This document shows, piece after piece, positions 36,499 through 57,834 of a DNA stretch of 64,000 nt; within the stretch, counting starts at the first letter, position 1; the number at the start of each line of letters is the position of its first letter. The position numbers and the translations under genes were made by a program. The stretch is from Candidatus Omnitrophota bacterium (GTDB lineage: Bacteria; Omnitrophota; Gorgyraeia; 2-02-FULL-51-18): assembly GCA_023247915.1 (NCBI GenBank), contig JAHFFN010000001.1, positions 9,417 to 73,416 on the forward strand. Reading direction: 5' to 3'. The notes under the pieces were generated by a model. It was not told where the DNA came from. It made no database searches and saw only the letters and a list, made by a program, of their open reading frames with translations.

Positions 36499-36636
36499 AG
36501 AGAGTGGGATTCGGCGCCCTACGCGCGTCACTTCGTTTGCCGCGCTTCGGGTCGGCCACTCGCGCGCCTGACGCGCCATATTGGCTGTCGTTTTTCTGCC
36601 TTTGTGGCAGCGGTGCGCTCCCTTCGAATCCCTATA
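36499..36636 (-). repeat. tRNA-linked structured element, copy B
   Basis: The core is about 85% identical to copy A. Its ends are AGAGAGTGGGATTCG and CCTTCGAATCCC, imperfect copies of the tRNA-Ser(GCT) 3' end. A hairpin with a 13-nt loop (TCACTTCGTTTGC) has stem GCGCG/CGCGC here and GTCGG/CCGAC in copy A, i.e. 3 compensatory pairs. Confidence 0.6.
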
Positions 36637-36647
36637 AACTGATTTTT

Positions 36648-36759
36648 CTTATAACAGGCTCAGATGCAAGGCGCGAATGAAGTTTGCGCGGAGGCGTGCC
36701 GGGAGGCACGCCGCACAAGCAAACTTTGTTCGCAACGTAGCAGATGAGCCTGTTATAAG
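36648..36759. other. About 112-nt imperfect long hairpin (nested inverted repeats) between element B and tRNA-Ser(GCT)
   Basis: Outer 14-bp inverted repeat cttataacaggctc/gagcctgttataag. Inner helices gcgaa/ttcgc and aagtttgc/gcaaactt, with apex ggcgtgcc-ggga-ggcacgcc. No U-tract on either strand. Confidence 0.5.
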
Positions 36760-36765
36760 AAAAAC

Positions 36766-36853
36766 GGAGAGACTGGGATTCGAACCCAGGGACCAGTTTT
36801 ACCCGGTCAGTCACTTAGCAGGCGACTGCAATCGGCCTCTCTGCCATCTCTCC
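36766..36853 (-). tRNA. tRNA-Ser (anticodon GCT)
   Basis: GGAGAGA acceptor, anticodon stem-loop GTCGC-CTGCTAA-GTGAC, long variable arm, T-arm CTGGG-TTCGAAT-CCCAG, TCTCTCC-G. Confidence 0.85.
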
Positions 36854-36885
36854 AAAAACTATTTTAAGTCAGCAAACAAGAATGG

Positions 36886-36970
36886 CGGAGAGGGTAGGAT
36901 TCGAACCCACGGTACCTTTCGGCACATCCGCTTTCAAGGCGGACGCAATCGACCACTCTGCCACCTCTCC
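36886..36970 (-). tRNA. tRNA-Ser (anticodon TGA)
   Basis: GGAGAGG acceptor, anticodon stem-loop TCCGC-CTTGAAA-GCGGA, long variable arm, GTGGG-TTCGAAT-CCTAC, CCTCTCC-G. Confidence 0.85.
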
Positions 36971-36982: not shown

Positions 36983-38257
36983 TTATTTCTTGATCACGCT
37001 CACGCCGCCCATGTACGGGCGAAGCACTTCGGGAATTAAAACAGATCCGTCTGCGTTTTGAAAATTTTCTAAGATGGCGATCATGACGCGCGGAAGCGCC
37101 AATCCCGAACCGTTAAGCGTGTGAACAAATTCAGACTTGGTAGAACCTTTGCGTTTAAAACGGATATTCGCGCGGCGCGCTTGAAAGTCTTCGAAGTTAC
37201 TCACCGACGAAACCTCCAACCACCGCCCCATTCCCGGCGCCCAAGCCTCGATATCATAGCACTTGGCCGCGGCAAAGCCCATATCACCACTACAAAGCTG
37301 CAGCACCCGGTAAGGAATTCCCAGTTTTTGTAAAATCACTTCCGCGTCTTTTAATAATTTCTCATGTTCTTGATACGAATCTTCCGGCCGAGTAAATTTA
37401 ACCAGCTCCACCTTGTCAAACTGATGGATACGCACCAACCCCTTGGTGTCTTTGCCGTAGGAGCCCGCTTCCCGGCGAAAACAGGGGGTGTAAGCCGTGT
37501 ACTTGAGCGGCAAGTCCTCTTCCTTCAAAACATCATCACGGTGAACATTGGTCACCGGCACTTCGGCGGTCGGGATTAAAAATAAGTCTTCGTCTTTCAA
37601 ACGATAGAGATCTTCTTCAAATTTGGGGAGTTGCCCCGTCCCGGTCATAGTCGCACGATTCACCAAGGATGGTGGCCAAAACTCCGTATACCCATGCTCT
37701 CGGGTATGCGTGTCCAACATAAAGTTAATCAAAGCCCGTTGGAGTCGAGCCCCCATTCCACGGTACAGGGCAAAACCACTCCCCGAAATCTTGGAAGAGA
37801 CCGCCATATCGAACATTCCTAGCTCCTGACCCAGCTCGGTATGCTCTTTTGGCTTAAAATCATGCTTTTTTGGCTCCCCCCAGCTAGAAACCACTGTATT
37901 TTGGGTAGAATCAGACCCAATTTTAACCGATTTATGAGGTATATTTGGGATAATATATAGTATTTCATTCAATTTTGAATCAAATTCACCCACTCTTACT
38001 TCAAATTCTTTGATTTTTTGGGAAGTGGATTTCATGGAGTCAATCTCGCCCTTGGCATCTTTCTTCTCCTTAAGAAGGGCGGAGATACGGTCATTGGCCT
38101 TATTCTTCTCGGCACGCAGTGCCTCCAGCTCTTGGAGCACCTGCCGGCGATCCATATCCAGGCGTAAAAAAGCCTCAAAATCGAGCTTGGGCGCCCTTAC
38201 TTTTAGGGCTTCCTTCACCTGTTCCTTATTGTCTCTAATAAAGGATAAATCCAGCAT
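36983..38257 (-). CDS. serS: Seryl-tRNA synthetase
   Basis: 424 aa. N-terminal coiled-coil arm (MLDLSFIRDNKEQVKEALKVR) and class II catalytic core motifs. Confidence 0.9.
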   Translation of the reverse strand: MLDLSFIRDNKEQVKEALKVRAPKLDFEAFLRLDMDRRQVLQELEALRAEKNKANDRISALLKEKKDAKGEIDSMKSTSQKIKEFEVRVGEFDSKLNEILYIIPNIPHKSVKIGSDSTQNTVVSSWGEPKKHDFKPKEHTELGQELGMFDMAVSSKISGSGFALYRGMGARLQRALINFMLDTHTREHGYTEFWPPSLVNRATMTGTGQLPKFEEDLYRLKDEDLFLIPTAEVPVTNVHRDDVLKEEDLPLKYTAYTPCFRREAGSYGKDTKGLVRIHQFDKVELVKFTRPEDSYQEHEKLLKDAEVILQKLGIPYRVLQLCSGDMGFAAAKCYDIEAWAPGMGRWLEVSSVSNFEDFQARRANIRFKRKGSTKSEFVHTLNGSGLALPRVMIAILENFQNADGSVLIPEVLRPYMGGVSVIKK

Positions 38258-38380
38258 TCCATCCTCGCTAAAATGTTTTGAGCTACTTTACCACTCTAAT
38301 ATATCCGGCGCCACAATTTTTGAGAGAGACAGGCTTCTGGAAAGGGTTAAATCTAGGAGCGAATGGGGGCTCTTTTTGGG

Positions 38381-38950
38381 TTAGCGCGTCGCCAGCCGTA
38401 AGGATTCAAGATCTGACACGGTATTGATATTCCTCAATTCCCGAATCGGTTGGTTCAAGGGGATGATATTTTTTTCTGAAATGGACTCAATGAGCCCCCG
38501 CATCGATAATTTTTCCATCGAAAGGCATCTGGAAATTTCGGGAAACAGGCCGGAAGGGTAAATGCCGGGGAATGGTTCTATTTTCTCCCCGGGTAACGCG
38601 TACAATGTCAGCACGGGTTTTTCTTTATTTTCATTGATCAGATATTTTAATAATTCCTGACTCACCGCCGGCATGTCACAGGTTAGCACCAGAAAATCAA
38701 CACCCGGATACAGGGACATCGCGGTTTCAATTCCTCCGAGCGGCCCTTTTTGCGGCAAACGGTCATAATGAACCGTCGCCTTGGGAATGGAACAAATTTT
38801 CTTTTCCTGCGTCACCACTAAAGGGAAAAGCTCGAGCTCATCCAATATTTTTACCGCCCGCAAAAGAAAAGATTCTCCCTTGTAAAGAGCTTCCGCCTTA
38901 TCTGAGCCAAATCGCCGGCTTAAACCTCCGGCCAAAACAAGTCCGCGCAT
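38381..38950 (-). CDS. mobA: Molybdenum cofactor guanylyltransferase
   Basis: LVLAGGLSRRFGSDKAEA is the MobA N-terminal motif. The start is probably MRGLVLAGG (around 38950), abutting the moaE stop. Confidence 0.75.
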   Translation of the reverse strand: MRGLVLAGGLSRRFGSDKAEALYKGESFLLRAVKILDELELFPLVVTQEKKICSIPKATVHYDRLPQKGPLGGIETAMSLYPGVDFLVLTCDMPAVSQELLKYLINENKEKPVLTLYALPGEKIEPFPGIYPSGLFPEISRCLSMEKLSMRGLIESISEKNIIPLNQPIRELRNINTVSDLESLRLATR

Positions 38951-39378
38951 CACAGCAAAACTTCCTGGGTGTGATGACAAACCCCCCATTCTGAGGAATC
39001 GTCATTAAAAAATTGTTTTTTCCAGATAGGAACTTCCCGCTTAATGCCTTCTATCACAAAACGGCAAGCGGAAAACGCCTCTTGGCGATGAGCGGAACTC
39101 ACAACAATCGCGACGGCCGCTTCCCCGACTTCAATCATTCCCACACGGTGTAAAACCCGGATATCCTCGACAGCCCATTGGCTTTTTGCCCGATGGATCA
39201 AATCAGCGATCATTTTAACGGCCATCGGCAAGTAACATTCATAATAAAGCCTTCGCACCTCTTGGCCTTCATCATGGTTTCTCACAAATCCCACAAAGGA
39301 CGCGACGGCACCGCAACGCGAATTAGCGGTGTTTGAGAAAAATTTTTCCAACAAGATGGGGTCAGTGGTAATGGACAT
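38950..39378 (-). CDS. moaE: Molybdopterin synthase catalytic subunit
   Basis: 142 aa, of MoaE family size, with the conserved VGFVRNHDEG-like block. Lies in the moa operon. Confidence 0.75.
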   Translation of the reverse strand: MSITTDPILLEKFFSNTANSRCGAVASFVGFVRNHDEGQEVRRLYYECYLPMAVKMIADLIHRAKSQWAVEDIRVLHRVGMIEVGEAAVAIVVSSAHRQEAFSACRFVIEGIKREVPIWKKQFFNDDSSEWGVCHHTQEVLL

Positions 39379-39382
39379 GGAA

Positions 39383-39640
39383 TCAGCCGCCGGACATAGG
39401 CATCATAATCGCCAGACAATCCCCCTCTTTTAGCTCTGTGTCTGGCATTTCAAAAGTCTCGTTGATCGCGTACACCAACGATTGTTTTTTTAAAAAATAC
39501 GTTTTGGAATCATGAGAAAAATAATCCGTGACCTCTCCTGCTTTAATTTTATCCGGAACAACCAGGGAATGGCTCGCGCCAAACATTTCTCTGAGCTCCG
39601 CAAAAAAAAGAACCTGAATTTTCACGAAATACCTCCGCAC
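39383..39640 (-). CDS. moaD: Molybdopterin synthase sulfur carrier subunit
   Basis: 85 aa, ending in Gly-Gly (MMPMSGG). Located between moeA and moaE. Confidence 0.75.
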   Translation of the reverse strand: MRRYFVKIQVLFFAELREMFGASHSLVVPDKIKAGEVTDYFSHDSKTYFLKKQSLVYAINETFEMPDTELKEGDCLAIMMPMSGG

Positions 39641-40848
39641 AGGTAGGGCAAGGAATGCACTTCCACTTTTTCACCCACCTCTAACACCTGCTTCGAGCCG
39701 GGGACTACCACAAAACTATTAGCCTGACAAAAAGATGACAACATGTGAGATTGTTGATGCTTCAAAGGAGTGACCTGGCGTTCTTGGGTGGGTTCGACAC
39801 GCGCTTTGATAAATAATGTCTTTTCCTGATCCGGATAGATCGCTTGGGAAAGCTTGATCCATTCTGACGAAAGAGCCGCATCGGCGTATCCCATTGAAAA
39901 ACGGATCGCCGGATACACATATTCATAAAAACAGGTAAAAACACTGGCGGGATTTCCCGGCAGACCAAACACAAGACAGTTTTCTTTCTTTCCAAAATAA
40001 AGCGGCTTGCCCGGTTTCTGGCTGACTTTCCAAAAAATTGTTTCGACGCCTGAGTCTGCGAGAATCGGTTTCACATAATCAAAATCTCCGACAGATACCC
40101 CTCCCATAAGAATCAAAATATTGCTTTCTTTTAAAGCGAAATGAATCATTTTTTTAATCAAGTCCGGACGATCGGGCACCTTGCGTGTAAAAAAAGGGCG
40201 AATCCTCATGCCTTCCAGTGCCGCGCGAATCATGGCGGTATTTGAATCGTATATTTTTCCGCGCTCCAAAGGATTGCCCGGTACCGTCAATTCACTGCCT
40301 GTAGCAACCAGTGAAATTTTAGGAATCTGATAGGCATAGAGGTGATGGATTCCCATGGACGCCAAAAAACCGACTGTGCCCGGATTGATCACGGAGCCTT
40401 CAGAGAGAACGGTTTGACCCTTTTTTATCTCCTCGCCTTTGCGGCGAATATTCTTTCCAGGAGACACCGGTGATTTCACGATAAGAAAATTATCTTGGAC
40501 AACCACGTTTTCTTTCGCCAAAACGGCGTCGGTGCCTTTCGGAATCGGTGCTCCCGTCATAAGGCCGCAAGCCTGCCCTTTTCTAATCGCCAATGAACTC
40601 GAGTCCCCGGCTTTCACGACACCCCGAATGGAAAGCCGTACCGGTGCTTCAAGGGTAGCGTCTTGGGTATCCGCGGATTTTAAAGCAAAACCATCCATCG
40701 CTGAATTATCAAACACGGGCAGAGAAATCGGCGCTTTTAGATTTCGGGCATTCACATGACCTAACGCTTCCAATAAAGGAATATTTTCTTCCTTCAAGGA
40801 AAGCTTGTGTTGGGCGATAAGTCTCTGAGCTTCGCTACAAGAAATCAT
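39622..40848 (-). CDS. moeA: Molybdopterin molybdotransferase
   Basis: 408 aa. MoeA N-terminal domain followed by the MoCF-biosynthesis domain (GGVSVGDFD). Confidence 0.85.
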   Translation of the reverse strand: MISCSEAQRLIAQHKLSLKEENIPLLEALGHVNARNLKAPISLPVFDNSAMDGFALKSADTQDATLEAPVRLSIRGVVKAGDSSSLAIRKGQACGLMTGAPIPKGTDAVLAKENVVVQDNFLIVKSPVSPGKNIRRKGEEIKKGQTVLSEGSVINPGTVGFLASMGIHHLYAYQIPKISLVATGSELTVPGNPLERGKIYDSNTAMIRAALEGMRIRPFFTRKVPDRPDLIKKMIHFALKESNILILMGGVSVGDFDYVKPILADSGVETIFWKVSQKPGKPLYFGKKENCLVFGLPGNPASVFTCFYEYVYPAIRFSMGYADAALSSEWIKLSQAIYPDQEKTLFIKARVEPTQERQVTPLKHQQSHMLSSFCQANSFVVVPGSKQVLEVGEKVEVHSLPYLCGGIS

Positions 40849-41597
40849 TAAAAAGCCTTTAAAACCAGGTTGATTGAAATAAATAAAACTAACCCTGCCA
40901 AAATTCTCTGAAGTTTAATCAGTGGGAGGTGGTGAGACCCCAATCGGGAGCCGATCCATCCTCCCAAAAAAGCCGAAAAGGCCAAGAGCCATAGATTGGG
41001 TGTCAGCGCTAATCCATTTTGAAGTTTTCCGGCAAGGCCTGACAGAGAATTTACAAAAATAAAAAAACTGGCGGCGGCAGAGGCTTCACCAAGAGTCGCC
41101 AAGCCTGTCAGAATTAAAAAAGGACTTAAAAAAATTCCTCCTCCGATCCCGACAAGCCCTGAAAAAAATCCCATCAGGGCTCCGGCAGGCAAACCCAAAG
41201 ACCAAAGTCTCTTGGTCGTTATCTCACGCTTATCTGCGGAACCACTGCGCAATAGAAAAAGTCTCAGCCCCGCAAACGCCAGGCACGCGCCTAAAAGAAT
41301 ATAGAAAACTTCCTTTTTAAGCGGCACATGCGCGCCTACAAATGCCAGCGGAATCGACAATGCCATAAAAGGTAAAACCAGCCGGAAGCGGAAATGCCCC
41401 GCTTTATAAAAATGAAAAAAACCAACACTGGAAACGACGAGATTGCAAATCAGCGCGATCGGAGCGCTTTGAGTGTGCGTGAAACCTGCCAGTGTCAAAA
41501 CCAAAAGATACGAAGAACCTCCGGCAAACCCTACCGTCGAATAGATAAAGGCAACAGCAAAAAATAAAAGTGGCAGTATTTGAAGAATGTGGCTCAT
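40848..41597 (-). CDS. TauE/SafE (DUF81) family membrane transporter
   Basis: 249 aa with about 8 TM segments. The Gly-rich pseudo-repeat is typical of PF01925. Confidence 0.6.
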   Translation of the reverse strand: MSHILQILPLLFFAVAFIYSTVGFAGGSSYLLVLTLAGFTHTQSAPIALICNLVVSSVGFFHFYKAGHFRFRLVLPFMALSIPLAFVGAHVPLKKEVFYILLGACLAFAGLRLFLLRSGSADKREITTKRLWSLGLPAGALMGFFSGLVGIGGGIFLSPFLILTGLATLGEASAAASFFIFVNSLSGLAGKLQNGLALTPNLWLLAFSAFLGGWIGSRLGSHHLPLIKLQRILAGLVLFISINLVLKAF

Positions 41598-42526
41598 ATT
41601 CCCGACTCCTGTTTAAGAATTAATTCATGTCCAAGGCCTCTCATCATTTTAAAGGCATGAAGAATGGCCGGGAAAATAGCATCAAGCGACTCTTCCACTC
41701 CACTGGAAGAGCCGGGCAAAGTCACGATCAATGTTTTTCCTCTCTGTCCCGCTAATCCCCGCGATAGCATCGCGTAGGGCGTGCGGCGCTGGCCAAAACC
41801 GCGCGCGGCCTCCATGATTCCCGGAATCTCGCGCTCAAGAACTTCTGTGACCGCTTCCACCGTAACATCCCGAGGACCCAAGCCCGTCCCCCCCGTGGTT
41901 AAAATAAGATTCACGCCTTTGTCGCAATATTCCAAAAGGCCGTGTTGAATAATTTCTTTGTCGTCCGGAAGAACGGAATAATCCGCCGGAATCCCCAGCG
42001 AGGCAAGCCGTTCTAAAATAATTTTTCCTGATTTATCCTGCCGGGTGCCCCTGGAAGTGCTATCGGAAGTGACAATGACGGCCGCTTTGAAATTGACAGG
42101 TATTTTTTCTTTAAAACTACTTTTTCCGCCGGTCTTTTGGATTAATTTTGTGCCGGTGATTTGAAGTTCCGTATCGATGGGCTTCAGCATATCGTAAATT
42201 GTGAGTGCGGCGACACTGGCCGCCGTCAGTGCTTCCATTTCAACGCCGGTTTTGGCGACCGCTTCGACCGTGGCTTGAATCAGCACTTCTGTTTCTTGAA
42301 CAATGAATTCGATCTCCACCCAATCAATCGCGATTGGGTGACAATAAGGCAAAAGTTCCGGTGTTTTTTTGGCCGCCATCACTCCCGCCGCGCGCGCAAT
42401 CGGTAAAATATCTTTTTTAGGGATGTCATTTTTTTCTAGGCGTCGCAGTGTTTCGGATTTGACCAGAACGCGGCTTTCCGCGACGGCCCGTCTAAGCGTT
42501 TCAATTTTTTGAGTGACTGATCTCAT
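41594..42526 (-). CDS. moaC: Fused cyclic pyranopterin monophosphate synthase (MoaC) / MogA-MoaB-like molybdopterin adenylyltransferase
   Basis: The N-terminal 150 aa are MoaC-like (LPYCHPI..., GVEMEALTAASVAALTIYDM). The C-terminal 160 aa are MogA/MoaB-like (TSDSTSRG...GGTGLGPRD). Confidence 0.75.
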   Translation of the reverse strand: MRSVTQKIETLRRAVAESRVLVKSETLRRLEKNDIPKKDILPIARAAGVMAAKKTPELLPYCHPIAIDWVEIEFIVQETEVLIQATVEAVAKTGVEMEALTAASVAALTIYDMLKPIDTELQITGTKLIQKTGGKSSFKEKIPVNFKAAVIVTSDSTSRGTRQDKSGKIILERLASLGIPADYSVLPDDKEIIQHGLLEYCDKGVNLILTTGGTGLGPRDVTVEAVTEVLEREIPGIMEAARGFGQRRTPYAMLSRGLAGQRGKTLIVTLPGSSSGVEESLDAIFPAILHAFKMMRGLGHELILKQESGI

Positions 42527-42530
42527 GGTT

Positions 42531-43511
42531 TTATCCTCCTACGGCTGTCATTACAAAATCATTGTGAGGCACTTCCGGACTATTTAAAAAATGCTCCTCT
42601 GGCCGGTTGAATACCGTCTCCAAAATATGTTTTTTTATCTCGTTTCGAGAATCGCCTTGCCGTAATAACTTTTTTAAATTCAAATCTTCTTTTCCGTGAA
42701 GACAGGTTTTCATCATCCCATTGGCCTTCAAGCGTAAACGATTGCACTTGGCACAAAAAACATTGGAAAGAGGGCTGATAAATCCTGCCTTCGTCTGAGT
42801 TCCTTCTAAATGAAAAGTTCTTGCCGGTGCGTGAGGATTTTCATCGTCGGGAATCAGATTGTATTTTCCTTCGATCAATTTTTTAGCGATATCCGCGCTC
42901 ATAAAACGACCCGCTCTAACTTCAAGAATCTCATTGGCTGTCGGCATCCATTCAATAAAGCGCAGATCTAGCCGCTTTTTAACCGAAAAATCCACAAGAT
43001 CCATGATTTCGTGATCGTTAACCCCCTTCATCAGGACAGCATTGATTTTTATGGGTGTTATTTTTTGATCCACAGCCTCTTGGATGCCATCCAGCACGTC
43101 CTGCCATTTGTCAGCACCCGTGATCCGTTTAAAATTCTCACGGTCAAGCGTATCCAAACTGATATTGATACGGTCTAAGCCCGCTTTTTTTAAATCACTG
43201 GCGAAATGTTTCAGCAAAACACCATTGGTCGTCATCACCACTTCCCGGATACCCGCAATCTTTTTGACGCGACTCACAAGATTGACCGCGTCTTTTCGAA
43301 GCAAGGGCTCCCCTCCCGTCAAACGCACTTTCCAGATGCCAAGTTCCGCAAAGATAGAAACAATTGTGACGATCTCGTCCTCATTTAATATTTCGTCTTC
43401 CTTAAAAGGATTGAGAGCCCCGTGCGGCATGCAGTAAAAACAACGCAGATTGCAACGGTCAATCAACGACACCCTTAAATAAGTCAGTTCTCGTCCGTAC
43501 TTATCAATCAT
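42531..43511 (-). CDS. moaA: GTP 3',8-cyclase (radical SAM)
   Basis: CNLRCFYCMP radical-SAM cluster motif and a C-terminal second-cluster Cys motif. Confidence 0.9.
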   Translation of the reverse strand: MIDKYGRELTYLRVSLIDRCNLRCFYCMPHGALNPFKEDEILNEDEIVTIVSIFAELGIWKVRLTGGEPLLRKDAVNLVSRVKKIAGIREVVMTTNGVLLKHFASDLKKAGLDRINISLDTLDRENFKRITGADKWQDVLDGIQEAVDQKITPIKINAVLMKGVNDHEIMDLVDFSVKKRLDLRFIEWMPTANEILEVRAGRFMSADIAKKLIEGKYNLIPDDENPHAPARTFHLEGTQTKAGFISPLSNVFCAKCNRLRLKANGMMKTCLHGKEDLNLKKLLRQGDSRNEIKKHILETVFNRPEEHFLNSPEVPHNDFVMTAVGG

Positions 43512-43520
43512 TCGATCCCC

Positions 43521-45077
43521 TTAAAAATTAATGGCCACTTCCATGTAAAACAAATCAGCGTTTCTTTTTGTCGTAAAAAATCGTTTCACGACATCGTCGC
43601 CGTAAAAGTGACTGTAATAGGCCATCACCGTCAAGTCCGGATTGACAGCCCATGTCAGGGTCGTGTCCACCATCCTTCCCAATTGTTTCTGACTATTCGA
43701 AGTGCGTGCCGCAAAGTCATCCGCGACATTGTCATGAATCGCGCCCGACCCGAGATACCAGCGATCATTTTTTTCAGAAAGTTCTACCGCGTGAAACTCT
43801 GTTCTCCACGTCAAAAAGTCCTTCGGCTTCAAGATTAAAGAAACAAAAGCATCTTCGGTATTCATCATGTTGTAAAGAATCGAGAATGAATAAAGCCTGG
43901 CGGTCGGCAACATCTGATGAAAGGTTCCGTGTGTCTCGTCCGCGGGATCGTTGTCACCGGAACCTTGATTAAATCCAACGCGCAACCAAGGCGTCCAAGG
44001 CGCTTGAGTGAGTTGATAACCTGTCTCGGCGGCAAACGCATACGCGGACTGTTCTTGTTCGAACCAACTACCGGTTTGATACGCGCCCCACCCGAGAACA
44101 TCCCACACACCAGAGCCCACCGTATAATCCCCCACCACATGCCCGCCAAAAGTGTAAAGATCAATATCACTTTCACGGCCTGCCAAAATAGTGCGCCCTG
44201 TATTATCCAAGCGTACCGTCGTGGCAGCGATGTTGCGGTGATCGTCGTAGTTATAGTAAAAAAACTGTTCTTCCATTCCTGGAATCAGTCTGTCTTTTTT
44301 GATATTGGCTTCCACGGCCATCACGTCAATATCTTGAATCGAACGCTGAGCTCTTTCCTCAAAACCACCCTGAGTCGGGCTAAAGCCGGCGACGCTGATT
44401 TGTGAAAAATCATCTTCACGCGCGACTTTCCACCCGTCAAAAGAACGTCCGTAGTGTGACCATTCGAAACTACCGATCAAGCGGTCGCCAATGCGTTGGG
44501 TTTTAAGCCAATCGATCTTTTTATCCGTGGATTTCATCTCATTGCCACTGGAATAATTAAAACGGCCGACCGTTTCGGTGACTCCACGAAGCCACTTCAC
44601 GTCTCCAAAAACAGGCTCTAAGAGCTGCCGGGTCTGCTTAATCTCAAGATTTAAGTATTTGATAAATTGGCCATGAGAATTACGGTCTCTTGAATTGGAA
44701 AAATAAAGCGAACCTGAGCCGGCTCCGGCGCTCGTCTTCGTAGGTAGATTTGAGAGCTGTGTGTATTGATGCGTGTAATTGACATTAAAAATATCATGCA
44801 CCCAACGCGCGCCGAACCGAAGTTGATTGGCTAAAAATTCGTAATCATTGTCGGTGGTGGACGTAAAATAGTTCCAAGCTTCATAACGGAGCCGATCCCG
44901 TCCAAAAAATGACACATTGCCCCAATCATTCGGCAAGGTCAACCGGAGATCTTTGAGTGTCACAAATCCGGGATCGGTTTTTAACGAAAAACCTGTCTCT
45001 TTTGCCGATGCCACGGATCCCCACAAACACAGGGTGACTGCTATGACTGCGATATTCCATTTATTTATGATTTTCAT
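43521..45077 (-). CDS. Outer-membrane beta-barrel porin (alginate-export/AlgE-like family)
   Basis: 518 aa. Signal peptide, alternating beta-strand pattern, C-terminal aromatic residue (…EVAINF). Confidence 0.45.
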   Translation of the reverse strand: MKIINKWNIAVIAVTLCLWGSVASAKETGFSLKTDPGFVTLKDLRLTLPNDWGNVSFFGRDRLRYEAWNYFTSTTDNDYEFLANQLRFGARWVHDIFNVNYTHQYTQLSNLPTKTSAGAGSGSLYFSNSRDRNSHGQFIKYLNLEIKQTRQLLEPVFGDVKWLRGVTETVGRFNYSSGNEMKSTDKKIDWLKTQRIGDRLIGSFEWSHYGRSFDGWKVAREDDFSQISVAGFSPTQGGFEERAQRSIQDIDVMAVEANIKKDRLIPGMEEQFFYYNYDDHRNIAATTVRLDNTGRTILAGRESDIDLYTFGGHVVGDYTVGSGVWDVLGWGAYQTGSWFEQEQSAYAFAAETGYQLTQAPWTPWLRVGFNQGSGDNDPADETHGTFHQMLPTARLYSFSILYNMMNTEDAFVSLILKPKDFLTWRTEFHAVELSEKNDRWYLGSGAIHDNVADDFAARTSNSQKQLGRMVDTTLTWAVNPDLTVMAYYSHFYGDDVVKRFFTTKRNADLFYMEVAINF

Positions 45078-45142
45078 TGTTTGTTTTCTCCCGTTGTTGT
45101 TTTAAATAAAAGCGTCCATCCTTGGAACGCCTTTTAAACACC

Positions 45143-45162
45143 GGGAAACTTCTTTATTTCCC
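45143..45162 (-). promoter_or_regulatory. Intergenic RNA hairpin GGGAAAU-AAAGAA-GUUUCCC (hexaloop with A1/G4) between nrtD and the porin gene
   Basis: Palindrome gggaaacttctttatttccc at 45143-45162. It lies 14 nt after the nrtD stop, and a second stem plus U-tract (GGCGU...ACGCUUUUAUUU) follows on the minus strand. Confidence 0.45.
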
Positions 45163-45175
45163 TAATTAAAATGAA

Positions 45176-45988
45176 TTAAGCGGCTACCGAATGGTCGCCG
45201 TAACTCTCGCTCTCCAAAAATCCAATGAGTGTTCCCCGATGAACATAATAATCAGGATGCTCAATCACTTCCTGTTTATTACGGGGTCGCTCAAAATTAA
45301 CTTTTAGAATATTACCTACATGCGCGCGTGGCCCACTCGTCATCATGACGACTCTATCTGAAAGATACAGCGCCTCGTCCACGTCGTGAGTCACCATAAG
45401 AGCCGTTATTTTTTCGGTATTCCAAATATCGAGTAAGATTTCTTGGAGATCCGCGCGGGTGAGCGAATCCAGCATGCCGAATGGCTCGTCCAAAAGCAGT
45501 AATTTAGGCTTTAAAGCGAACGCGCGCGCGAGACTGACACGTTGCTTCATTCCGATGGAAAGTTCGGACGCTTTTTTATTCAAACTGTCCCCAAGACCCA
45601 CACGTTCGAGATAATGCTTACAAACCGCCACGCGCTCTTTATGGGAATCGTTTGGCCTCACCTGATCGACACCAATCAATACATTTTGAAGAGCCGTCAT
45701 CCACGGAAAGAGACTGGGGCTCTGAAACACAACGCCGCGGTCAGGACCCGGTTCCTCAATCAGTCGGTTTTGAAGAATCACCCCGCCGCGGGACACCTTA
45801 TTCAACCCCGCCGCCACCATCAACATCGTGGACTTACCGCAACCGGAATGCCCAATGATGGTGATAAATTCACCCTTCGCGATGCGAAGCTCAAACCCCT
45901 CCACGACAGCAATAGGCCCATTGGGCGAAGGATATTCCTTCGTCGTGTCCGTAAAATGAAGAAATGGATTTAGAAGTTCCATGGACAT
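45176..45988 (-). CDS. nrtD: Nitrate/sulfonate/bicarbonate-type ABC transporter ATP-binding subunit (NrtD-like)
   Basis: GHSGCGKST Walker A, LSIGMKQRVSLARA signature. The start is probably M20/M22 (MSMELLNPF). Confidence 0.7.
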   Translation of the reverse strand: MSMELLNPFLHFTDTTKEYPSPNGPIAVVEGFELRIAKGEFITIIGHSGCGKSTMLMVAAGLNKVSRGGVILQNRLIEEPGPDRGVVFQSPSLFPWMTALQNVLIGVDQVRPNDSHKERVAVCKHYLERVGLGDSLNKKASELSIGMKQRVSLARAFALKPKLLLLDEPFGMLDSLTRADLQEILLDIWNTEKITALMVTHDVDEALYLSDRVVMMTSGPRAHVGNILKVNFERPRNKQEVIEHPDYYVHRGTLIGFLESESYGDHSVAA

Positions 45989-45998
45989 ACTGTCGGGC

Positions 45999-46823
45999 TC
46001 AGGCATAGCAAACTCCACGCTCACTCGCGGTTTCTTCACAAACAACCCGAGGCTTACGAATATTCAAAAGATACTTGGTGATGCCATTACGCAATTTTTT
46101 GTACGATTCATCGGTATTAAATGTTTTTTTGTCGCGAGGCCGTGGAATTTCAACCTGGAAATCAGGCCCCAAGGTCGCGCGAGGTCCCGGATTGAGAGGA
46201 ACAATGCGGTCGGCCAAGAGAATCGCCTCATCAATGTCATTGGTAATCAAAACAACGGTCTTTTTTTCAGTTCTCCAGATTTTTTCAATCTCTATTTGCA
46301 AGGAACTGCGTGTGAGCGCGTCCAGAGCGCCCAACGGCTCATCCAAAAGAAGGATGTCCGGATTCATCGCGAGGGCTCTTGCCACGGAAACGCGTTGGCG
46401 CATGCCGCCCGAAAGCTCATGGGGACGTTTGTACACGGCCGCGGCGAGATTGACCATGCGTAAATATTTCATGATTCGCTCTTCTCGCTCAGTTTTAGAC
46501 TGATCACTAAAAACTTGGTCAACGGCAAGCGCGACATTCCCGTGTACCGTGAGCCATGGCAAAAGAGAGTAGTTTTGAAACACAACGCCGCGGTCGGGCC
46601 CTGGGCCGGTAATAGGTTTTCCTCGCAGTAAAATTTCACCTTCGTCCGGCGCCAATAAACCGCTGATTAATGATATCAATGTGGTTTTTCCGCTTCCCGA
46701 AAATCCCAGGATCGCCAAAAATTCGCCTTCTTCGATAGAAAGGTTAATATTTTTTAAAACATCCACACGCTCGGAACCGTGTCCGTAACCTTTGCTCACA
46801 TTTTTTAATTCTAAAAATGCCAT
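45999..46823 (-). CDS. nrtC: ABC transporter ATP-binding subunit (NrtC-like)
   Basis: GFSGSGKTT Walker [16 protein letters not shown] signature, [11 protein letters not shown]. Confidence 0.7.
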
Positions 46824-46835
46824 CCCATACTCCTT

Positions 46836-47852
46836 TTAGTGCGTCTCAGGCGTGTAACTCACAAGCGAGTGGAGCGTCACCATCACACGATCGAGAATAA
46901 AACCAATGATACCGATGGTGAAAACCGCCACCATGATGCGCGCTAAAGATTGGCTGGAGCCATTTTGAAACTCGTCCCAGACAAATTTTCCAAGACCTGG
47001 ATTTTGTGAAAGCATTTCAGAAGCGATCAGCACAATCCAGCCCACCCCGAGCGAAATCCGGAGACCCGCAAAAATGTAAGGCAGGCTTGACGGGATCACG
47101 ATTTTAAAAATCTTATTAAAAAATCCAAGTTTCAGGACACGCGCGACATTCAAATAATCTTTATCAATCGAGGCCACGCCGAGCGATGTGTTGATGAGAC
47201 TAGGCCAGAGACAACACAAAGACACCGTCACCGACGAAATAATGTACGATTTGGGGAGCCATTCCCTGGGCACCACATAAATCGAGCTGACAATCATCGT
47301 GACGATAGGAAGCCAGGCCACGGGGGATACGGGTTTAAAAATTTGTATCAAAGGCGTCAACGCCATTGAAAGCGTTCTGCTTAAACCGCATAAAATTCCC
47401 AGTGGCACCGCGATCACAGACGCGATTAAAAAGCCGGTGAACACTGTGCGAAGGCTGGTAAAGATCTGATCGAGATAGGTCGGTTTTCCGGTGAATTTCC
47501 GGTTCTTCGCGGGTTCCGAAGGATTTGCCGCCAGTTTTGCCGCGTTTTTCTCGGCTTGAATTTTGTAAAATTCGACTTCTTTTCTTCTTTCTTCTTTGTA
47601 TTCATGGGCGAGACTTCTTACTTGCTCTAGTACCTGAGCCGGTCCTGGGACTCGGCCAAGGTTTGTTTCTATCCCAGCGGCGGCGCCATTCCACACTAAA
47701 AGAAAAATCGCGAATGTCATCACCGGCACCCCGATTCTTAAGAGGATTTCACGAATTTGCTCATTCGCATCCTCACCGGTCGCCAAGCGTATCACGGGCG
47801 TGAACCACCCAAAACCCGCGATGGATAGAACCCGAATCAATTTATTTTTCAT
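46836..47852 (-). CDS. nrtB: ABC transporter permease (NrtB-like)
   Basis: 338 aa with 6 TM segments and a BPD_transp_1 EAA-like loop. Confidence 0.7.
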
Positions 47853-47860
47853 GACACACT

Positions 47861-49189
47861 CTATTTCTTTCCGATGGCAAATTTCTGCAAATATTCGTTT
47901 GGTTTTTTGCCGTCATAAGCGATATTGTCGATGAAATCGCTGGCCGGAGATTCCTTAAAGCCATCCGTTTGGGGAATGTCGGACTCCGCTAGCTTTCCTT
48001 CGGCGACAAGTTCTTTAGCCGCCTCCGTCCAAATGTCCGGACGATACACCTTCTTCGCCAATTCGAAATACCATTCATCCGGCTTGGATTCAATTTGCCC
48101 CCAACGCCTTATTTGCGTCAGCCACCAAATAGCGCCGGAATAATAAGGATAAGTCGTGTTATCCCTGAAAAAAACATCCCAATCCGGCTCGTCACGGATG
48201 TCGTCTTTTTCATATCCAAATTTTCCTTTGAGCATCCGGGAGATGATTTCATAATCGGCACCGACATATTCTGGCTTGGACAAAATTTTCGCGGCTTCTT
48301 CTCTATTCTCGACGCTCGCGTCAAGCCATTTACCCGCTTGAATCAACGCGCGCACGATCGCCTTTAGCGTTTCTGGATTTTTATCAGCCCATTCCTTGGT
48401 GACTCCGAAAACTTTGTCGGGCAGTCCTTTGGCATAAAAATAGCTGGAGGTCACCGGCACCCCGATGCCACGCACAGAAATTTGCGTATGCCAGGGGTCA
48501 TTCACGCAAACGCCTTGCACCGTCCCCGCTTGCAAAACAGCCGGCATTTGCGGAGGAGGGGTTACGGATAGCTGAACATCTCCCTCGGTATAGCCGTTCG
48601 TATCAGTCGGTGTATAAAAACCCGGGTGAATTCCTCCGGCCGCCAACCAATAACGAAAGGAATAGTTATGAACGCCGACAGGATACGTCATGGCAAGTTT
48701 GAAAGGTTTTCCTTCGTTTTTAAATTCTTCCACCACAGGCTTCATGGCATCCGCCTTGATAGGATGCACGGGCTTGCCATCGGATTGCACGGGAATATTC
48801 GGCTTCATTTTTTTCCAAACTTCGTTCGAAACGGAAATTCCCGCTCCATTTTGAGACATCACGTAAGGAACAATAATATGCGCTTTCGTCAGAAGACCTT
48901 CCGTGTGCCCGAGCGGAGCCGGCGCCAGCATATGCGAGCCGTCCAATTCACCGTCAATCACCCGGTCCATCAGAGTCTTCCAGTTGGCTTGAGCTTCAAT
49001 CTTGACATAGAGCCCTTCCGCCTCAAAAAACCCTTTTTCCTTGGCGATGACGATCGGCGCGCAGTCCGTCAATTTGATAAAACCCAGCGTCAACTCGTCT
49101 TTTTCAACTTCCGCGAACGCGACTCTTGTCATCAAACCTAAGCCCATACACACCAGCGAAATAACCATGATCCAAGTTTTATTTCTCAC
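47861..49189 (-). CDS. nrtA: Nitrate/bicarbonate ABC transporter substrate-binding lipoprotein (NrtA/CmpA-like)
   Basis: 442 aa with signal peptide. The length and sequence resemble the NrtA family. Lies in the nasA/nirBD operon. Confidence 0.65.
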
Positions 49190-49296
49190 AACCTACCTCC
49201 CATGGAATCTACTTTCATTTCTTTTTATAAAGAAACCAAATAAAAAAGCATTCACCCGATTTTTCTTCGAGGAACGCCTTCGCCCTAAAACTTTTT

Positions 49297-49316
49297 GGGA
49301 AACGCCTTTATTTCCC
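49297..49316 (-). promoter_or_regulatory. Intergenic RNA hairpin GGGAAAU-AAAGGC-GUUUCCC between nasA and nrtA
   Basis: Near-identical copy of the 45143 motif, about 108 nt upstream of the nrtA start. An AAGGCGTTCC block follows, as at 45143. Confidence 0.45.
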
Positions 49317-49407
49317 TAAATGACTTACAAGAGAATTCTAGCTTTCTTAGATTACGCCCACGTTACGACTGAATGAAGAACATTTGAACATCCCGAATCT
49401 TCGAAAG

Positions 49408-51642
49408 CTAATGCCTTTTTGGCCGTTCCAGAAGCGGCACTGCGATGGAGCGCTCAACACGCACAGCGGCCTGTTTATAGTTGGGTTCTCTGGAAATGGG
49501 GTCGCAATCGCTTACGGTCAAATTGTTCGCGTTGGCCTCCGCGTAATGGAACGGGATAAAGATTTGCCCGGGAGCGATCGTCTCCGTGACGCGGAGAATG
49601 ACACGTTCGACCACTCCGCGCCTGGATTCCACACGCACGTAGTCGCCATGTTGAAATTTCAGATTCTGAGCATCCCGAGGATTCATTTCCACCCAGGCCT
49701 CGGGAGACAGCCGATTGAGCAGAGGAATCGCGCCTGTTTTAGTCCGTGTATGCCAATGTTCGACCGTTCTGCCGGTATTCAACCAAAAAGGGTAGTCCTT
49801 GTCGGGAACTTCGGACGGCGCTTTCCAATCAATAGGCCAAAGTTTCGCGCGGCCGTCCTCCGTCTCAAATTTTCCATCCGTATAAAGCCTCACGGATTCT
49901 TTAGGGGAACGCGTGCTACCTTCCTTAAACGGCCACTGAATCCCACCATGTTTTTCCAGAAGTTCATACGTGATCCCCGAATAATCACACAGCCGTCCGT
50001 GAGTCACCTTTTTCCATTCCTCAAAAGCGTCGCGCGGGCCTTTCCAATGAGGGTAAATGCTTTCCGACACGCCTAGTTCCTTGGCAATCATGAGAAAAAT
50101 ATCAAAATCAGATTTGGCTTCTCCCGGGGGCTCGACCGCTTTGTTCACCTTACTGACCATGCGCTCGGAGTTGGTGTAAGTGCCTTCTTTCTCCCCCCAA
50201 ACCCCCGCCGGCAACACAAGATCCGCGACTCGGCTGGTTGGAATCGGATGATACCCATCTTGAACCACTAGAAATTCAAGGCGTTCCAAACAATCCAAAA
50301 GATACGCTTGATTAGGAAATGAAACCAGTGGATTGGTCGCGATAATCCAAAGTGCTTTAATTTTTCCGGTCAATACCCCTTCGATAATATCGGGGTAAGC
50401 CATGCCACGGGAGGTGGGAATGATTTCCTCTTGGATGCCCCAAAGCGCCGCGAGCTCTTTACGATGCTCGGGATTTTCAAATTTCCGGTAGCCCGGCAAA
50501 CCGGATGTAAAACCAGCCTCCCGCGTACCCATCGCGTTGCACTGTCCTGTGATTGAAAATGGCGAAGCGCCGACGCGCCCGACATTGCCGGTGATGAGCG
50601 CGAGATTACAAATCGCGTTCACCGTTTCGGCTCCCTGCGCGCTATGATTAACACCCATTGTCCAAGCAATAAAAGGAGCGTTGGCACTGCCGTAAAGAAG
50701 CGCGATTTGACGAATGCGCTCAGGCGTAAGACCCGTGATATCACTCACCCGATCCGGTGTCCAAGATTCCAGATCTTCACGCAATTTTTCAAAACCGTTG
50801 GTATGTTTTTCGATGTAGCCGCGGTTAATTTTTTCTTCCTTAATCAGAATATGCATCATTCCGTTTAATAGAGCGATATCACTTCTGGGTTTGATCGGCA
50901 AATGAATATCGGCCATCATGGCCGTTTTTGTCACGCGGGGATCCACCACAATAAGAACTCGTCTTTTGTTTTTCTCAAGACGATAACAAAGAATGGGGTG
51001 ATTATCCGCGATATTGGCGCCGATCAAAAAAACCAGATCCGCTTTTTCCAGATCTTCATAAGAGCCCGGAGGGCCGTCGCTCCCAAATGACCGTTTGTAC
51101 CCGGACGCGGCGCTGGCCATACAAAGCGTCGTATTTCCATCGTAGTTTTTGGTCTTAAAACCAAGTTGCGCAAGCTTGCCAAGTGTGTAAAATTCCTCCG
51201 TGACTAATTGCCCCGTACCGATGATGCCCAAAGATTCTGGGCCGTATTTGTTCTGAATCGTCTGAAAGCGCCCCACCATCTCACGAATAGCCCAGTCCCA
51301 GCCGACCCGTTGGAATCGCTTATTTATTTTGAGTAAAGGGTATTTGGCGCGATTGGGCGCGTTGATCGCGTCATGTTCACAAAGTCCCTTGGGGCAAAGC
51401 CGCCCTTCGTTGACGGGATGGTTCTGGTTGCCTCGCACACTCACCGCTTTTCCTTTTTTGACGCCAATAAAAAGCCCGCAGCCTACCGAGCAATAACCGC
51501 AAGTGGTGGGAATCCACCGGTCTGGAATTTTGGCTTTGGACATGTAACCAAATTGCTCATCCACGTCATAAGCGTACTTTTCTGTTTGAAGATCAATCCC
51601 TAAGCGGCGGCGTACCGACTGAAAAAATGTTTTTGGATTCAA
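49408..51642 (-). CDS. nasA: Assimilatory nitrate reductase catalytic subunit (molybdopterin oxidoreductase)
   Basis: CGYCSVGCGL N-terminal 4Fe-4S motif, MopB family length, C-terminal molydop_binding domain. No twin-arginine signal. Uses a TTG start overlapping the upstream stop. Confidence 0.85.
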   Translation of the reverse strand: MNPKTFFQSVRRRLGIDLQTEKYAYDVDEQFGYMSKAKIPDRWIPTTCGYCSVGCGLFIGVKKGKAVSVRGNQNHPVNEGRLCPKGLCEHDAINAPNRAKYPLLKINKRFQRVGWDWAIREMVGRFQTIQNKYGPESLGIIGTGQLVTEEFYTLGKLAQLGFKTKNYDGNTTLCMASAASGYKRSFGSDGPPGSYEDLEKADLVFLIGANIADNHPILCYRLEKNKRRVLIVVDPRVTKTAMMADIHLPIKPRSDIALLNGMMHILIKEEKINRGYIEKHTNGFEKLREDLESWTPDRVSDITGLTPERIRQIALLYGSANAPFIAWTMGVNHSAQGAETVNAICNLALITGNVGRVGASPFSITGQCNAMGTREAGFTSGLPGYRKFENPEHRKELAALWGIQEEIIPTSRGMAYPDIIEGVLTGKIKALWIIATNPLVSFPNQAYLLDCLERLEFLVVQDGYHPIPTSRVADLVLPAGVWGEKEGTYTNSERMVSKVNKAVEPPGEAKSDFDIFLMIAKELGVSESIYPHWKGPRDAFEEWKKVTHGRLCDYSGITYELLEKHGGIQWPFKEGSTRSPKESVRLYTDGKFETEDGRAKLWPIDWKAPSEVPDKDYPFWLNTGRTVEHWHTRTKTGAIPLLNRLSPEAWVEMNPRDAQNLKFQHGDYVRVESRRGVVERVILRVTETIAPGQIFIPFHYAEANANNLTVSDCDPISREPNYKQAAVRVERSIAVPLLERPKRH

Positions 51643-53354
51643 TGCTTTCCCCCGCTTTCGGTGAAAAAACCTCCGGGAATGTTTTTGGGCACCACCGTGA
51701 CAAAAAAAAGATATCGTCCTAAAAACTCGCTGGAAAGGGCGATCAAGAAAGAAATTCCGGCAAACACGGCCGTTCCTATTCCCGAAACCGCGTCGCGCGT
51801 CAAAAAGGAGCTTAGGTAAAAAAATGGGAGGATAAAACTATTCAAAGTTAAAAGTCCGATGCGTAAAAGAAAATGAACTCGGAAGCGCCGTGTCATCAGC
51901 AGTGCCGAATCATACAATTCAGGATTTTTCCCTTCATTGACTTGAAAAAGTCGTGCGAAAAGCACCAAGAGCTGAGAAAAACCGGCGACCGCCGAAATAG
52001 CAAGCCAACAAAGAACTGGTCCAAGACTCTCGCGCGTCAGATTCTTTCCCATAAACACCAAATGAAGACCATAAACCACCAAACTAAAAAGCGGCCCCAA
52101 AATAAATCCTGTAAGAAAGAAACGTAAAGGCGTGCGGATAGTGTTCCAGGCGGGTCTGGCTGGAACCAGATAAATTTTAGCGCTGGCAAAAATTCCTGCC
52201 ATGCCAGAAAAAGCGGCGATGCCGCCTATGGATACAAGGATCACTTCTGGAAACTCCAAGTGTAGAAAGGTTTCCGCTAAAAGTAAGGCCGCGTATGCCG
52301 CGCCCGCAAAAGAAAATAGAGAGAAAAATAAAATTTCACGGGAAAGCCACGAGCGCCGCCACATTCGAAGCGCTTTGTAAGCGTAGAGCGGACGCCCCAA
52401 ATGAAAAACAGACGCGGATAGGGCTAGCCCCGTCACCGCCAAAATACCCGACGCGCCAAACACCTGAAATTCTTCCAAAGGTTTTAAAAATCCGACGACA
52501 TGCGCCAAAAGACTTCCGAGCCACAGCGTCATCAGTCCTCCCGCCGCCAGTTGAGTCAGTACCGTCATGACGATCAAGGATGTGTGAGGCTCTTCCGGTT
52601 CAACGCGATGGCGGTTTAAGCGCATGGTATCTTCCGGCATCGATTCTGGAAGTGTGATCCGGGTTGTTGAAATAGTGATGCTTGAATCCGGCATATGGGG
52701 CGCATCCGCGGCCGAATGGTCTTTAAGCCACTCGGCGACATTCACTGTTTCGATACGAATCGCTTTTTCTGGGCAGGCCGCCACGCAGGCCGGCGCCATG
52801 CCATCCGCAAGCCGGCTATAACACATATCACACTTGGTAACAATGCCGCGTTCTTTATTAAATTGGGGAACGCCATAAGCACAATTCCAAGTGCAGTAGC
52901 GGCATCCGATACATTCTTCGGCCTTATGACGAACCACACCCGTTTTCGGATCTTTAAGATAAGCGTCTGTCGGACAACCGGTCAAACAAGCCGGATCGAG
53001 ACAATGATTGCAAGCCATGGACATGTGAAATTTCTTAGCATTAGGATAAATGCCGCCTTCAATCTCGCCGACACGCCGCCAGTTGACCGTCGCGGGATTG
53101 TTGTTCTGTTCATTGCAGGCCACCACGCAACACTGACAACCCACACAACGTGACATATCAAAATGAAAACGGTACTGTTCTCCGTCCGCCAGGGGCTCTG
53201 TCGGAATAAGCGACTCTATTGGCTCTACAACACCCAACACGGTGCCGGTGATTTTATTTCCGCGCGGCGCGTAATAGCCTTCCTTACCCACCCTATTTTT
53301 TAAGGGTAGATTGTATTTATCCATCATTTCAAAGATTAAAGACTCTTCCGGCAT
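51639..53354 (-). CDS. Fused 4x[4Fe-4S] ferredoxin (DmsB/NrfC-like) and polytopic membrane anchor (DmsC/NrfD-like)
   Basis: The N-terminal 200 aa carry four CxxCxxCxxxCP-type clusters. The C-terminal 330 aa have about 8 TM segments. Confidence 0.6.
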   Translation of the reverse strand: MPEESLIFEMMDKYNLPLKNRVGKEGYYAPRGNKITGTVLGVVEPIESLIPTEPLADGEQYRFHFDMSRCVGCQCCVVACNEQNNNPATVNWRRVGEIEGGIYPNAKKFHMSMACNHCLDPACLTGCPTDAYLKDPKTGVVRHKAEECIGCRYCTWNCAYGVPQFNKERGIVTKCDMCYSRLADGMAPACVAACPEKAIRIETVNVAEWLKDHSAADAPHMPDSSITISTTRITLPESMPEDTMRLNRHRVEPEEPHTSLIVMTVLTQLAAGGLMTLWLGSLLAHVVGFLKPLEEFQVFGASGILAVTGLALSASVFHLGRPLYAYKALRMWRRSWLSREILFFSLFSFAGAAYAALLLAETFLHLEFPEVILVSIGGIAAFSGMAGIFASAKIYLVPARPAWNTIRTPLRFFLTGFILGPLFSLVVYGLHLVFMGKNLTRESLGPVLCWLAISAVAGFSQLLVLFARLFQVNEGKNPELYDSALLMTRRFRVHFLLRIGLLTLNSFILPFFYLSSFLTRDAVSGIGTAVFAGISFLIALSSEFLGRYLFFVTVVPKNIPGGFFTESGGKH

Positions 53355-53356
53355 TT

Positions 53357-56290: not shown

Positions 56291-56307
56291 TTAATTTTTA
56301 AATAAAA

Positions 56308-57821: not shown

Positions 57822-57834
57822 GGGAGAAAAATGT

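Follow-up and report, generated by a model that had tools for sequence, protein, structure and literature searches.

Comparative analysis of the window (the whole stretch of 64,000 nt analysed here) placed the sequence behind tRNA-Ser(GCT), designated copy B, in a hitherto uncatalogued family of small tRNA-linked elements from Omnitrophota bacteria and showed that the element sequence is constrained as a folded single strand. Our leading interpretation, to which we give roughly even chances, is that these elements, copy B among them, are small mobile DNAs without genes that insert at a specific site, the T-loop of tRNA genes, in Omnitrophota.

All four tRNA genes of the window lie on the minus strand, and three of them carry a copy of the element (Table 1). 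In addition to the copies described previously (A and B), a third, copy C, was newly found behind tRNA-Lys, with its direct tail copy approximately 160 nt past the inverted copy. The motifs GCGCCCTCC, ACTTCGTT, CCGGGTCGGCCATTCG, CTTTGTGGCA, and CTCTCTTCGA are common to A, B, and C in the same order, and this collinear set occurs three times in the window compared to an expected 0.00. Besides these three, an unfiltered model search of the window returned no fourth copy above noise. On the tRNA strand, every copy shows the order tRNA, spacer, inverted tail copy (X'), core, direct tail copy (X), and T-rich trailer, and every copy is co-oriented with its tRNA. The spacer between the tRNA and X' measures 12-28 nt. 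The elements are approximately 140-215 nt in length, contain no gene, and have a G + C content of 52-64%, compared to approximately 46% for the genome.

Table 1. Positions in the window of the tRNA genes and of the parts of copies A, B, and C.
Feature	Position	Strand	Remark
tRNA-Ser(CGA)	1583-1667	minus	carries copy A
tRNA-Ser(GCT)	36764-36854	minus	carries copy B
tRNA-Ser(TGA)	36883-36970	minus	next tRNA, 28 nt on
tRNA-Lys(TTT)	58060-58132	minus	carries copy C
Copy A, direct tRNA-Ser(CGA) tail copy	1426-1443	minus	18/18; with trailer 24 nt, one mismatch
Copy A, conserved core	1444-1552	minus	contains P3a (1453-1475)
Copy A, inverted tail copy	1553-1570	minus	18 nt, one G-T position
Copy A, spacer to tRNA-Ser(CGA)	1571-1582		12 nt
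Copy B, direct (apparently displaced) tRNA-Ser(GCT) tail copy from T-loop C56, partly decayed	36499-36513	minus	CGAATCCCACTCTCT vs CGAATCCCAGTCTCTCCG
Copy B, conserved core	36514-36622	minus	
Copy B, P3	36513-36519 with 36549-36557		GGCGCCC with GGGTCGGCC (plus-strand letters)
Copy B, variable-arm hairpin P3a	36523-36545	minus	GCGCG/CGCGC and 13-nt loop
Copy B, P2	36562-36568 with 36612-36618		GCGCGCC with GGTGCGC (plus-strand letters)
Copy B, P2a	36597-36601 with 36607-36611		CTGCC with GGCAG (plus-strand letters)
Copy B, inverted copy (X') of tRNA T-loop/T-stem	36623-36632	minus	10 nt perfect from T54
Copy B, closing helix P1	36623-36632 with 36504-36513		
Copy C, direct tRNA-Lys tail copy and about 6 nt of T-rich trailer	57827-57851	minus	from repeat search
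Copy C, long-type core	57852-58007	minus	from shared motifs
Copy C, inverted tRNA-Lys tail and trailer copy	58008-58033	minus	26/26 complementary to 58054-58079

The surroundings of copy B have two further features. Two cognate tRNA genes, Ser-TGA and Ser-GCT, come directly after serS (36983-38257) in the same orientation and form a compact synthetase-tRNA cluster with it. A near-perfect hairpin of approximately 120 nt (36643-36764; DNA fold -43.5 kcal/mol, z = -11) separates tRNA-Ser(GCT) from copy B, and a similar hairpin of approximately 125 nt was found directly behind tRNA-Lys in a relative (L002, 9736-9860). Both read TTTTT..CATCTGC..GCATCTGA..AAAAA with a conserved TC/TC mismatch, and they constitute a second family of tRNA-trailer foldbacks.

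To extend the family, metagenome contigs were searched with a gapped pattern common to all three window copies; six of the ten loci obtained were true members. Four of them lie behind tRNA-Leu(TAA) (L007), tRNA-Asp (L008), tRNA-Arg(CCT) (L011), and tRNA-Leu(GAG) (L012). L013 contains two subtypes, with at least three units in tandem and complete units back to back, and L015 lies between two tRNA-His genes. The window itself comes from an Omnitrophota genome: its SerRS has a 100% identical counterpart on a 95-kb NCBI/ENA contig, and those relatives of the protein that carry a name are Candidatus Omnitrophica. The host of L007 was assigned to Omnitrophota by its ThrRS. The family sample comprises only ten full copies (three in the window and seven in metagenome contigs) on at least six contigs, found with patterns derived from the family itself. 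These copies are associated with nine distinct tRNA genes, namely Ser-CGA, Ser-GCT, Lys, Leu-TAA, Leu-GAG, Asp, Arg, His, and one beyond a contig end. L008 also contains three remnants in which the 5' side is truncated and the 3' tRNA-like end is retained. Its regions 2520-2660 and 1640-1690 form a graveyard of fragments, several of them 5'-truncated with a tRNA-like 3' end, and the tail of one fragment derives from a tRNA other than the adjoining tRNA-Asp.

We considered whether the copies are chance resemblances or ordinary tRNA-gene terminators with no family relationship, a reading in whose favor it can be said that hairpins and T-runs often follow tRNA genes and that sub-threshold matches such as sX4 were obtained in Rfam. 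This reading is refuted by the number of collinear motif sets in the window relative to expectation, by the model scores of the copies, which range from 107 to 156 bits against noise of at most 14.5 bits, and by the pairing statistics given below, and its remaining probability is negligible.

The repeats that flank the core begin at fixed tRNA positions. The direct repeat starts at C56 in all seven copies whose tRNA is on the contig and is perfect over 9-19 nt (18 or 19 nt in five intact copies, 9 nt in the decayed copy B, and 11 nt in the truncated L008 copy); allowing one mismatch, it extends to 24-26 nt in A and L012 and to 15 nt in B. The inverted copy starts at T54 and is perfect over 10 nt (B, L007, and L008), 12 nt (L012), 14 nt (L011), or 26 nt (C), and that of copy A is perfect over 6 nt, or 18 nt with one G-T position. 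In A, C, L011, and L012 it matches the neighbouring tRNA specifically. From T54 to the inner end of X', A, L007, L011, and L012 measure approximately 48-54 nt irrespective of the inverted-repeat length, as would be seen if a spacer already present were converted to give the longer palindromes.

The preliminary description had drawn attention to copies A and B as about 85% identical over about 110 nt. The repeat search gave 86% identity over 133 nt (copy A 1429-1561 against copy B 36499-36631), and MAFFT gave the same value. The hairpin stems were located where they had been described: GTCGG (1453-1457) and CCGAC (1471-1475) enclose the loop TCACTTCGTTTGC (1458-1470) in copy A, and GCGCG (36523-36527) and CGCGC (36541-36545) enclose the same 13 nt (36528-36540) in copy B. 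The three consecutive inner pairs U-A, C-G, and G-C of copy A are C-G, G-C, and C-G in copy B, with pairing intact. The loop had been called invariant, which holds between A and B and fails beyond them: it reads TCACGTTGTTTGC in the L008 copy and TCACTTTGTTTGC in an L008 fragment, and the P3a hairpin of the remaining copies is a variable arm of 15-55 nt.

By hand arithmetic, the ten P3a stem positions hold six of approximately 18 differences between A and B, and the probability of exact complements opposite three one-arm changes is approximately (1/3)^3; chance is therefore an unlikely explanation of the stem changes. Template switching in quasi-palindromes can yield paired changes in short hairpins without selection, and the A/B pair alone is thus not conclusive. 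Loss of the pairing in further copies had been named as a test, and the pairing was found to be kept. L008 has GGCGG/CCGCC around a near-identical loop at the position of the A/B stem, all ten full copies have a hairpin at the P3a position, and double changes occur at all four pairs of the P3a base (alignment columns 137-140 with 190-193). In copy A, the minus-strand GUCGG arm (CCGAC, 1471-1475) can alternatively pair with a P3 strand in the centroid structure. The substitutions in copy B abolish this alternative and retain P3a, which, in these predicted structures, points to P3a as the conserved pairing.

The tRNA-like end of copy B (36499-36513) has diverged from the tail of tRNA-Ser(GCT), as had been observed: the match is perfect over 9 nt, extends to 15 nt with one mismatch, and is divergent beyond. 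Of the two origins that had been offered, an older insertion fits better than transfer from a different Ser tRNA; tRNA-Ser(GCT) is the best match, with one mismatch in 15. This end looks like the displaced original tail, decaying without selection.

To determine the common structure, the ten full copies were aligned in tRNA-sense orientation and a consensus fold was computed with RNAalifold. The consensus is a Y-shaped three-way junction of P1, P2, and P3. P1 consists of X' paired with X. P2 encloses the conserved hairpin CUGCC-ACAAA-GGCAG (P2a) and a second, variable hairpin, and P3 pairs GSCCG(A)CCC, with a bulged A, to GGGCGS'C and is capped by the variable hairpin P3a. The 3' strand is continuous through P3 and P1, placing the branch point exactly at the boundary between the core and the tRNA-derived sequence. 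Across the ten copies, 91.3% of the cells are paired compared to 75.9% in shuffles, and 19 of 30 pairs carry changes on both sides compared to 9.3 in shuffles; none of 500 shuffles attained the observed pairing values. In a control with a slid 3' partner, only 35-45% of the cells were paired. P3 displays a G-C to C-G swap (six copies against four) and a C-G to U-A change, and the sense strands of A and B fold more stably than shuffles, by 2.3 to 6.2 standard deviations. The earlier proposal that the covariation reflects structural constraint and not a mere sequence relic is thereby extended from P3a to P1, P2, P2a, and P3, and it is this covariation that indicates that the element is constrained as a folded single strand.

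The composition of the fold bears on which strand folds and on whether it does so as RNA or DNA. Among 300 pairing cells, 270 are Watson-Crick, four G-U, and five A-C, and one-sided changes number three versus 41 two-sided changes. This almost purely Watson-Crick pairing fits DNA better than RNA. A choice of strand from the wobble counts was attempted and rejected as uninformative (four G-U against five A-C). On the sense strand, 49% of the unpaired bases are A and 27% are G, and the internal loop between P3 and P3a is 5'-GNA/5'-GNA, in which G and A are invariant in ten of ten copies and the middle position is free; the opposite strand would show pyrimidine-pyrimidine mismatches there. Judging from the A-rich unpaired bases and this loop, the tRNA-sense strand is the folded one, and it probably acts as a folded single strand. 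The plus-strand GC skew is uniformly negative across the window, which would make the tRNA-sense strand the lagging-strand template throughout.

A possible but rather doubtful alternative is that the element is a structured sense-strand RNA, made together with the tRNA or just after it and set free when the tRNA 3' end is processed, in which the three-way junction acts as RNA, be it as a trailer-derived small RNA or terminator, an anti-tail regulator of tRNA maturation, or a template for target-primed reverse transcription. Functional RNAs typically have A-rich loops and G-A internal loops, and the presence of both here accordingly favors this alternative and counts against a mobile DNA element. 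The co-orientation of ten of ten copies with their tRNA and the P1 helix, followed by a T-run in most copies, also fit a transcript, as does the excess stability of the sense folds of A and B. The three 5'-truncated remnants of L008 with their 3' tRNA-like ends are such as target-primed reverse transcription leaves, and the perfect direct repeat of 9-19 nt resembles variable target-site duplications. Against an RNA stand the scarcity of G-U pairs, no more frequent than A-C, and the small number of one-sided changes. Furthermore, the tRNA and the element are separated in B and L008 by a strong foldback or terminator, making co-transcription doubtful there, and the perfect 26-bp antisense just behind tRNA-Lys would, were it to act as RNA, compete with tRNA folding. 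No reverse transcriptase is found nearby, no Rfam family matches at E ≤ 10, and the patchy distribution described below speaks against a host housekeeping role. Promoter and terminator scans gave weak consensus matches only. Taken together, the pairing statistics, the foldbacks separating tRNA from element, and the consideration that an essential tRNA should better tolerate a perfect 26-bp antisense behind it if only the DNA matters incline us toward DNA as the most likely nature of the folded single strand.

The distribution of the element was examined in five relatives with 77-82% SerRS identity (L002, L005, L017, L018, and L020). Their tRNA-Lys and tRNA-Ser genes are present and the element is absent; in L017, the closest relative, only 73 nt separate tRNA-Lys from serS. 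Synteny around the tRNAs is broken in all fetched SerRS, ThrRS, and PhyH-homologue loci, which yielded no occupied and empty version of one locus, and the insertion boundaries are therefore inferred. The patchy distribution, the tandem array in L013, and the truncated remnants in L008 are consistent with mobility of the element. To our knowledge, there is no DNA replicon as small as 150-200 nt, which counts against a mobile DNA element.

At L015 (8880-9204), the tRNA-His upstream of the element has its 3' part replaced from the T-loop on (CTTGATTCC... versus TTCAAATCCCG...), and an intact tRNA-His lies approximately 20 nt downstream of the element. The distal repeat still reads as the original tRNA-His T-loop and stem, and the broken upstream tRNA together with this original-like repeat fits a proximal tail supplied by the element and a distal tail from the original gene. 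The case is messy, and the broken upstream tRNA counts against the mobile-element reading. Two IS200-like Y1 transposase genes and one IS481-like transposase gene are located within 3 kb of this copy.

The genes neighbouring the copies are housekeeping genes. A PhyH-family dioxygenase gene lies downstream of copy A, and the genes next to copies B and C are convergent with them. The copies neither contain nor adjoin a recombinase, transposase, or reverse transcriptase gene, and tblastn with recombinase queries returned nothing in the window. An ORF6N-domain gene (57285-57821, plus strand), a mobile-element marker, lies immediately beside copy C. The tRNA-Ser genes of relatives have ORF6N and large serine recombinase genes next to them (L020, 11944-14097; L005, 17192-18628), and in L005 the final 17 codons of the recombinase overlap the 3' end of tRNA-Ser(GCT). 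Judged from these genes, tRNA genes are busy integration sites in this lineage. The genes frr, tRNA-Lys, and serS are adjacent in L002, L005, and L017, whereas in the window tRNA-Lys with copy C and serS are approximately 20 kb apart (38257-58060), with ORF6N, GAF-ANTAR, nitrite reductase, and molybdenum-cofactor genes in between; relative to these genomes, the region is a rearrangement or an island at tRNA-Lys.

The recombinase and ORF6N modules at tRNA-Ser genes of relatives and the ORF6N gene beside copy C could suggest that the copies are inert scars, that is, the att-site ends of deleted tRNA-integrated islands or prophages whose paired changes arose by template switching and not by selection. 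Displaced tRNA fragments are also normal scars of islands (PMC4383910). We nevertheless consider this account very improbable. Ten copies on at least six contigs have the same boundaries with no island DNA attached, and three complete units stand back to back in L013. The fold survives double changes at 19 pairs as well as differing hairpin lengths at one position, and palindrome correction does not yield conserved unpaired motifs or invariant G-A mismatches.

On the preferred reading of a mobile DNA element, the sequences suggest a site-specific, tRNA-regenerating integrative element reduced to a folded module of 150-200 nt. Islands in tRNA genes regenerate their target and leave a displaced fragment (PMC4383910), and after CTXphi integration a single functional site is accompanied by two att-like copies that do not function (PMC3089051). 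We infer a direction of events, a single-stranded DNA intermediate, and an enzyme as follows. The element would exist as a small circle or a single strand. Its inverted tail copy would pair with the tRNA tail or with the displaced tail to form the closing helix P1. Its tail/anti-tail hairpin would mimic the duplex form of the tRNA gene between the T-loop and the 3' end, and a putative trans-acting enzyme would recombine it at T54-C56, with P2 and P3 as the recognition scaffold. On insertion, the element would supply a replacement 3' part so that the tRNA gene stays intact, and the original 3' part from C56 on would be pushed to the far end and persist as a slowly decaying direct repeat, as in copy B. 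Template switching inside the palindrome has probably perfected the long, exact inverted copies where they stand. In this model, the fold would be the substrate of a putative trans-acting recombinase and, by analogy with CTXphi integration and integron attC sites, would most likely act as single-stranded DNA with a hairpin mimicking the duplex target. A more far-reaching version is that the family represents a new class of protein-less mobile elements with a target specificity encoded in nucleic acid: the folded strand would present a T-arm/acceptor hairpin to a host or helper recombinase, and the hairpin would be re-templated from each new tRNA target. We think this version improbable; if true, an uncultured phylum would possess a natural integration module that can be reprogrammed and does no harm to tRNA genes.

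If mobile, these would be among the smallest site-specific integrating elements described, targeting essential tRNA genes without inactivation and having an unusually well-supported fold. They would offer a handle on attachment-site switching between tRNA targets and would bear on whether folded single-stranded substrates, such as those of CTXphi and integron attC, are in use outside Proteobacteria. If the fold works as RNA, it would define a new tRNA-linked RNA family absent from Rfam. The copies also create partial tRNA fragments and strong hairpins behind tRNA genes, and in Omnitrophota genomes both mislead tRNA annotation and island finders and complicate assembly.

The element was compared with databases. 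In Rfam 15, only tRNAs reached the gathering score, and no meaningful overlap with the core was obtained even at E ≤ 10. A sub-threshold match to Xanthomonas sX4 was recorded at 1556-1679 (minus strand; 32.8 bits, where the cut-off is 70). This model itself consists of a tRNA followed by a segment complementary to the tRNA 3' end, and a similar tRNA and anti-tail arrangement may exist in Proteobacteria. BLAST searches of plasmid and phage collections gave no match. In viral contigs, the first pattern had no match, and two looser patterns of the P3 motif gave 28 loci, all chance occurrences in phage coding DNA of 57-73% GC, none with an adjoining tRNA and one with a weak (19-bit) partial model match. 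A scan of genome contigs with the 20-mer CTGACGCGCCATATTGGCTG yielded only a chance match in a Muribaculaceae coding region, and targeted literature searches returned no description of such a tRNA-linked element.

Several known systems were tried as candidates and rejected. The junction topology is similar to that of hammerhead-like ribozymes, but the element lacks both the CUGANGA/GAA core and the A-U closing pair, and none of the ribozymes in Rfam matches it. Crossover by a large serine recombinase at the T54-T55 dinucleotide was rejected because the distal junction lacks TT. With a TnpB-type guide RNA, in which the core would be the scaffold and the tail the guide, an occupied site would still be targeted through its regenerated tRNA. 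A retron was rejected as there is no reverse transcriptase. The element does share with retron msr-msd regions a length of 150-220 nt and terminal inverted repeats that close a junction with short hairpins and then a long variable hairpin; it differs in having no adjacent reverse transcriptase gene or Rfam msr match and in its tRNA-derived terminal repeats.

IS200/IS605-derived miniature elements make no target duplication and have a Y1 transposase in the genome; here, Y1_Tnp genes were seen near the L015 copy only, with none in the window, and flanking direct repeats are present. Like MITEs and REPINs, the elements are small, gene-less, multicopy (three in 64 kb and ten full copies overall), terminally self-complementary, and non-autonomous. 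Unlike in MITEs and REPINs, the terminal inverted repeats are target-derived and differ at each tRNA (10-26 nt), the flanking repeat is variable (approximately 18-26 nt where intact) instead of a short fixed duplication, and the target choice is strict.

Closer parallels are found among integrating elements. In tRNA islands and prophages of the tyrosine-integrase type and in their derivatives that lack an integrase, the target is likewise regenerated by the element and the displaced 3' fragment is a direct repeat starting inside the T-loop (PMC4383910), and tandem accretion occurs at one tRNA. Of the features in the Islander definition, the regenerated tRNA and the displaced 3' direct repeat are present and an integrase gene is not. 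The present element also differs in its size of 140-215 nt, its lack of genes, its extra inverted tail copy, its covarying three-way-junction core, and the absence of an integrase nearby. With CTXphi and other Xer-exploiting elements it has in common one regenerated site and two att-like copies, one of them inverted, a hairpin that would mimic the duplex target, and tandem arrays (PMC3089051); the corresponding arrangement of tail, spacer, inverted copy, core, and direct copy is found in all copies. Its target, by contrast, is the tRNA T-loop (TTCGAAT or a variant) and not dif with XerC/XerD sites, and it is approximately 40 times smaller, without phage or replication genes. Integron attC sites resemble the element as imperfect hairpins of 60-150 nt that act as folded single strands, keep their structure through sequence change, and have extrahelical bases and a variable terminal structure. 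The element has no R'' RYYYAAC and R' GTTRRRY boxes, and the base of its hairpin reads ..TTCGAAGRGAG / GGGCGSCGAAT..; in further contrast to attC, its core sequence is strongly conserved, and it is linked to tRNA genes rather than to cassette arrays.
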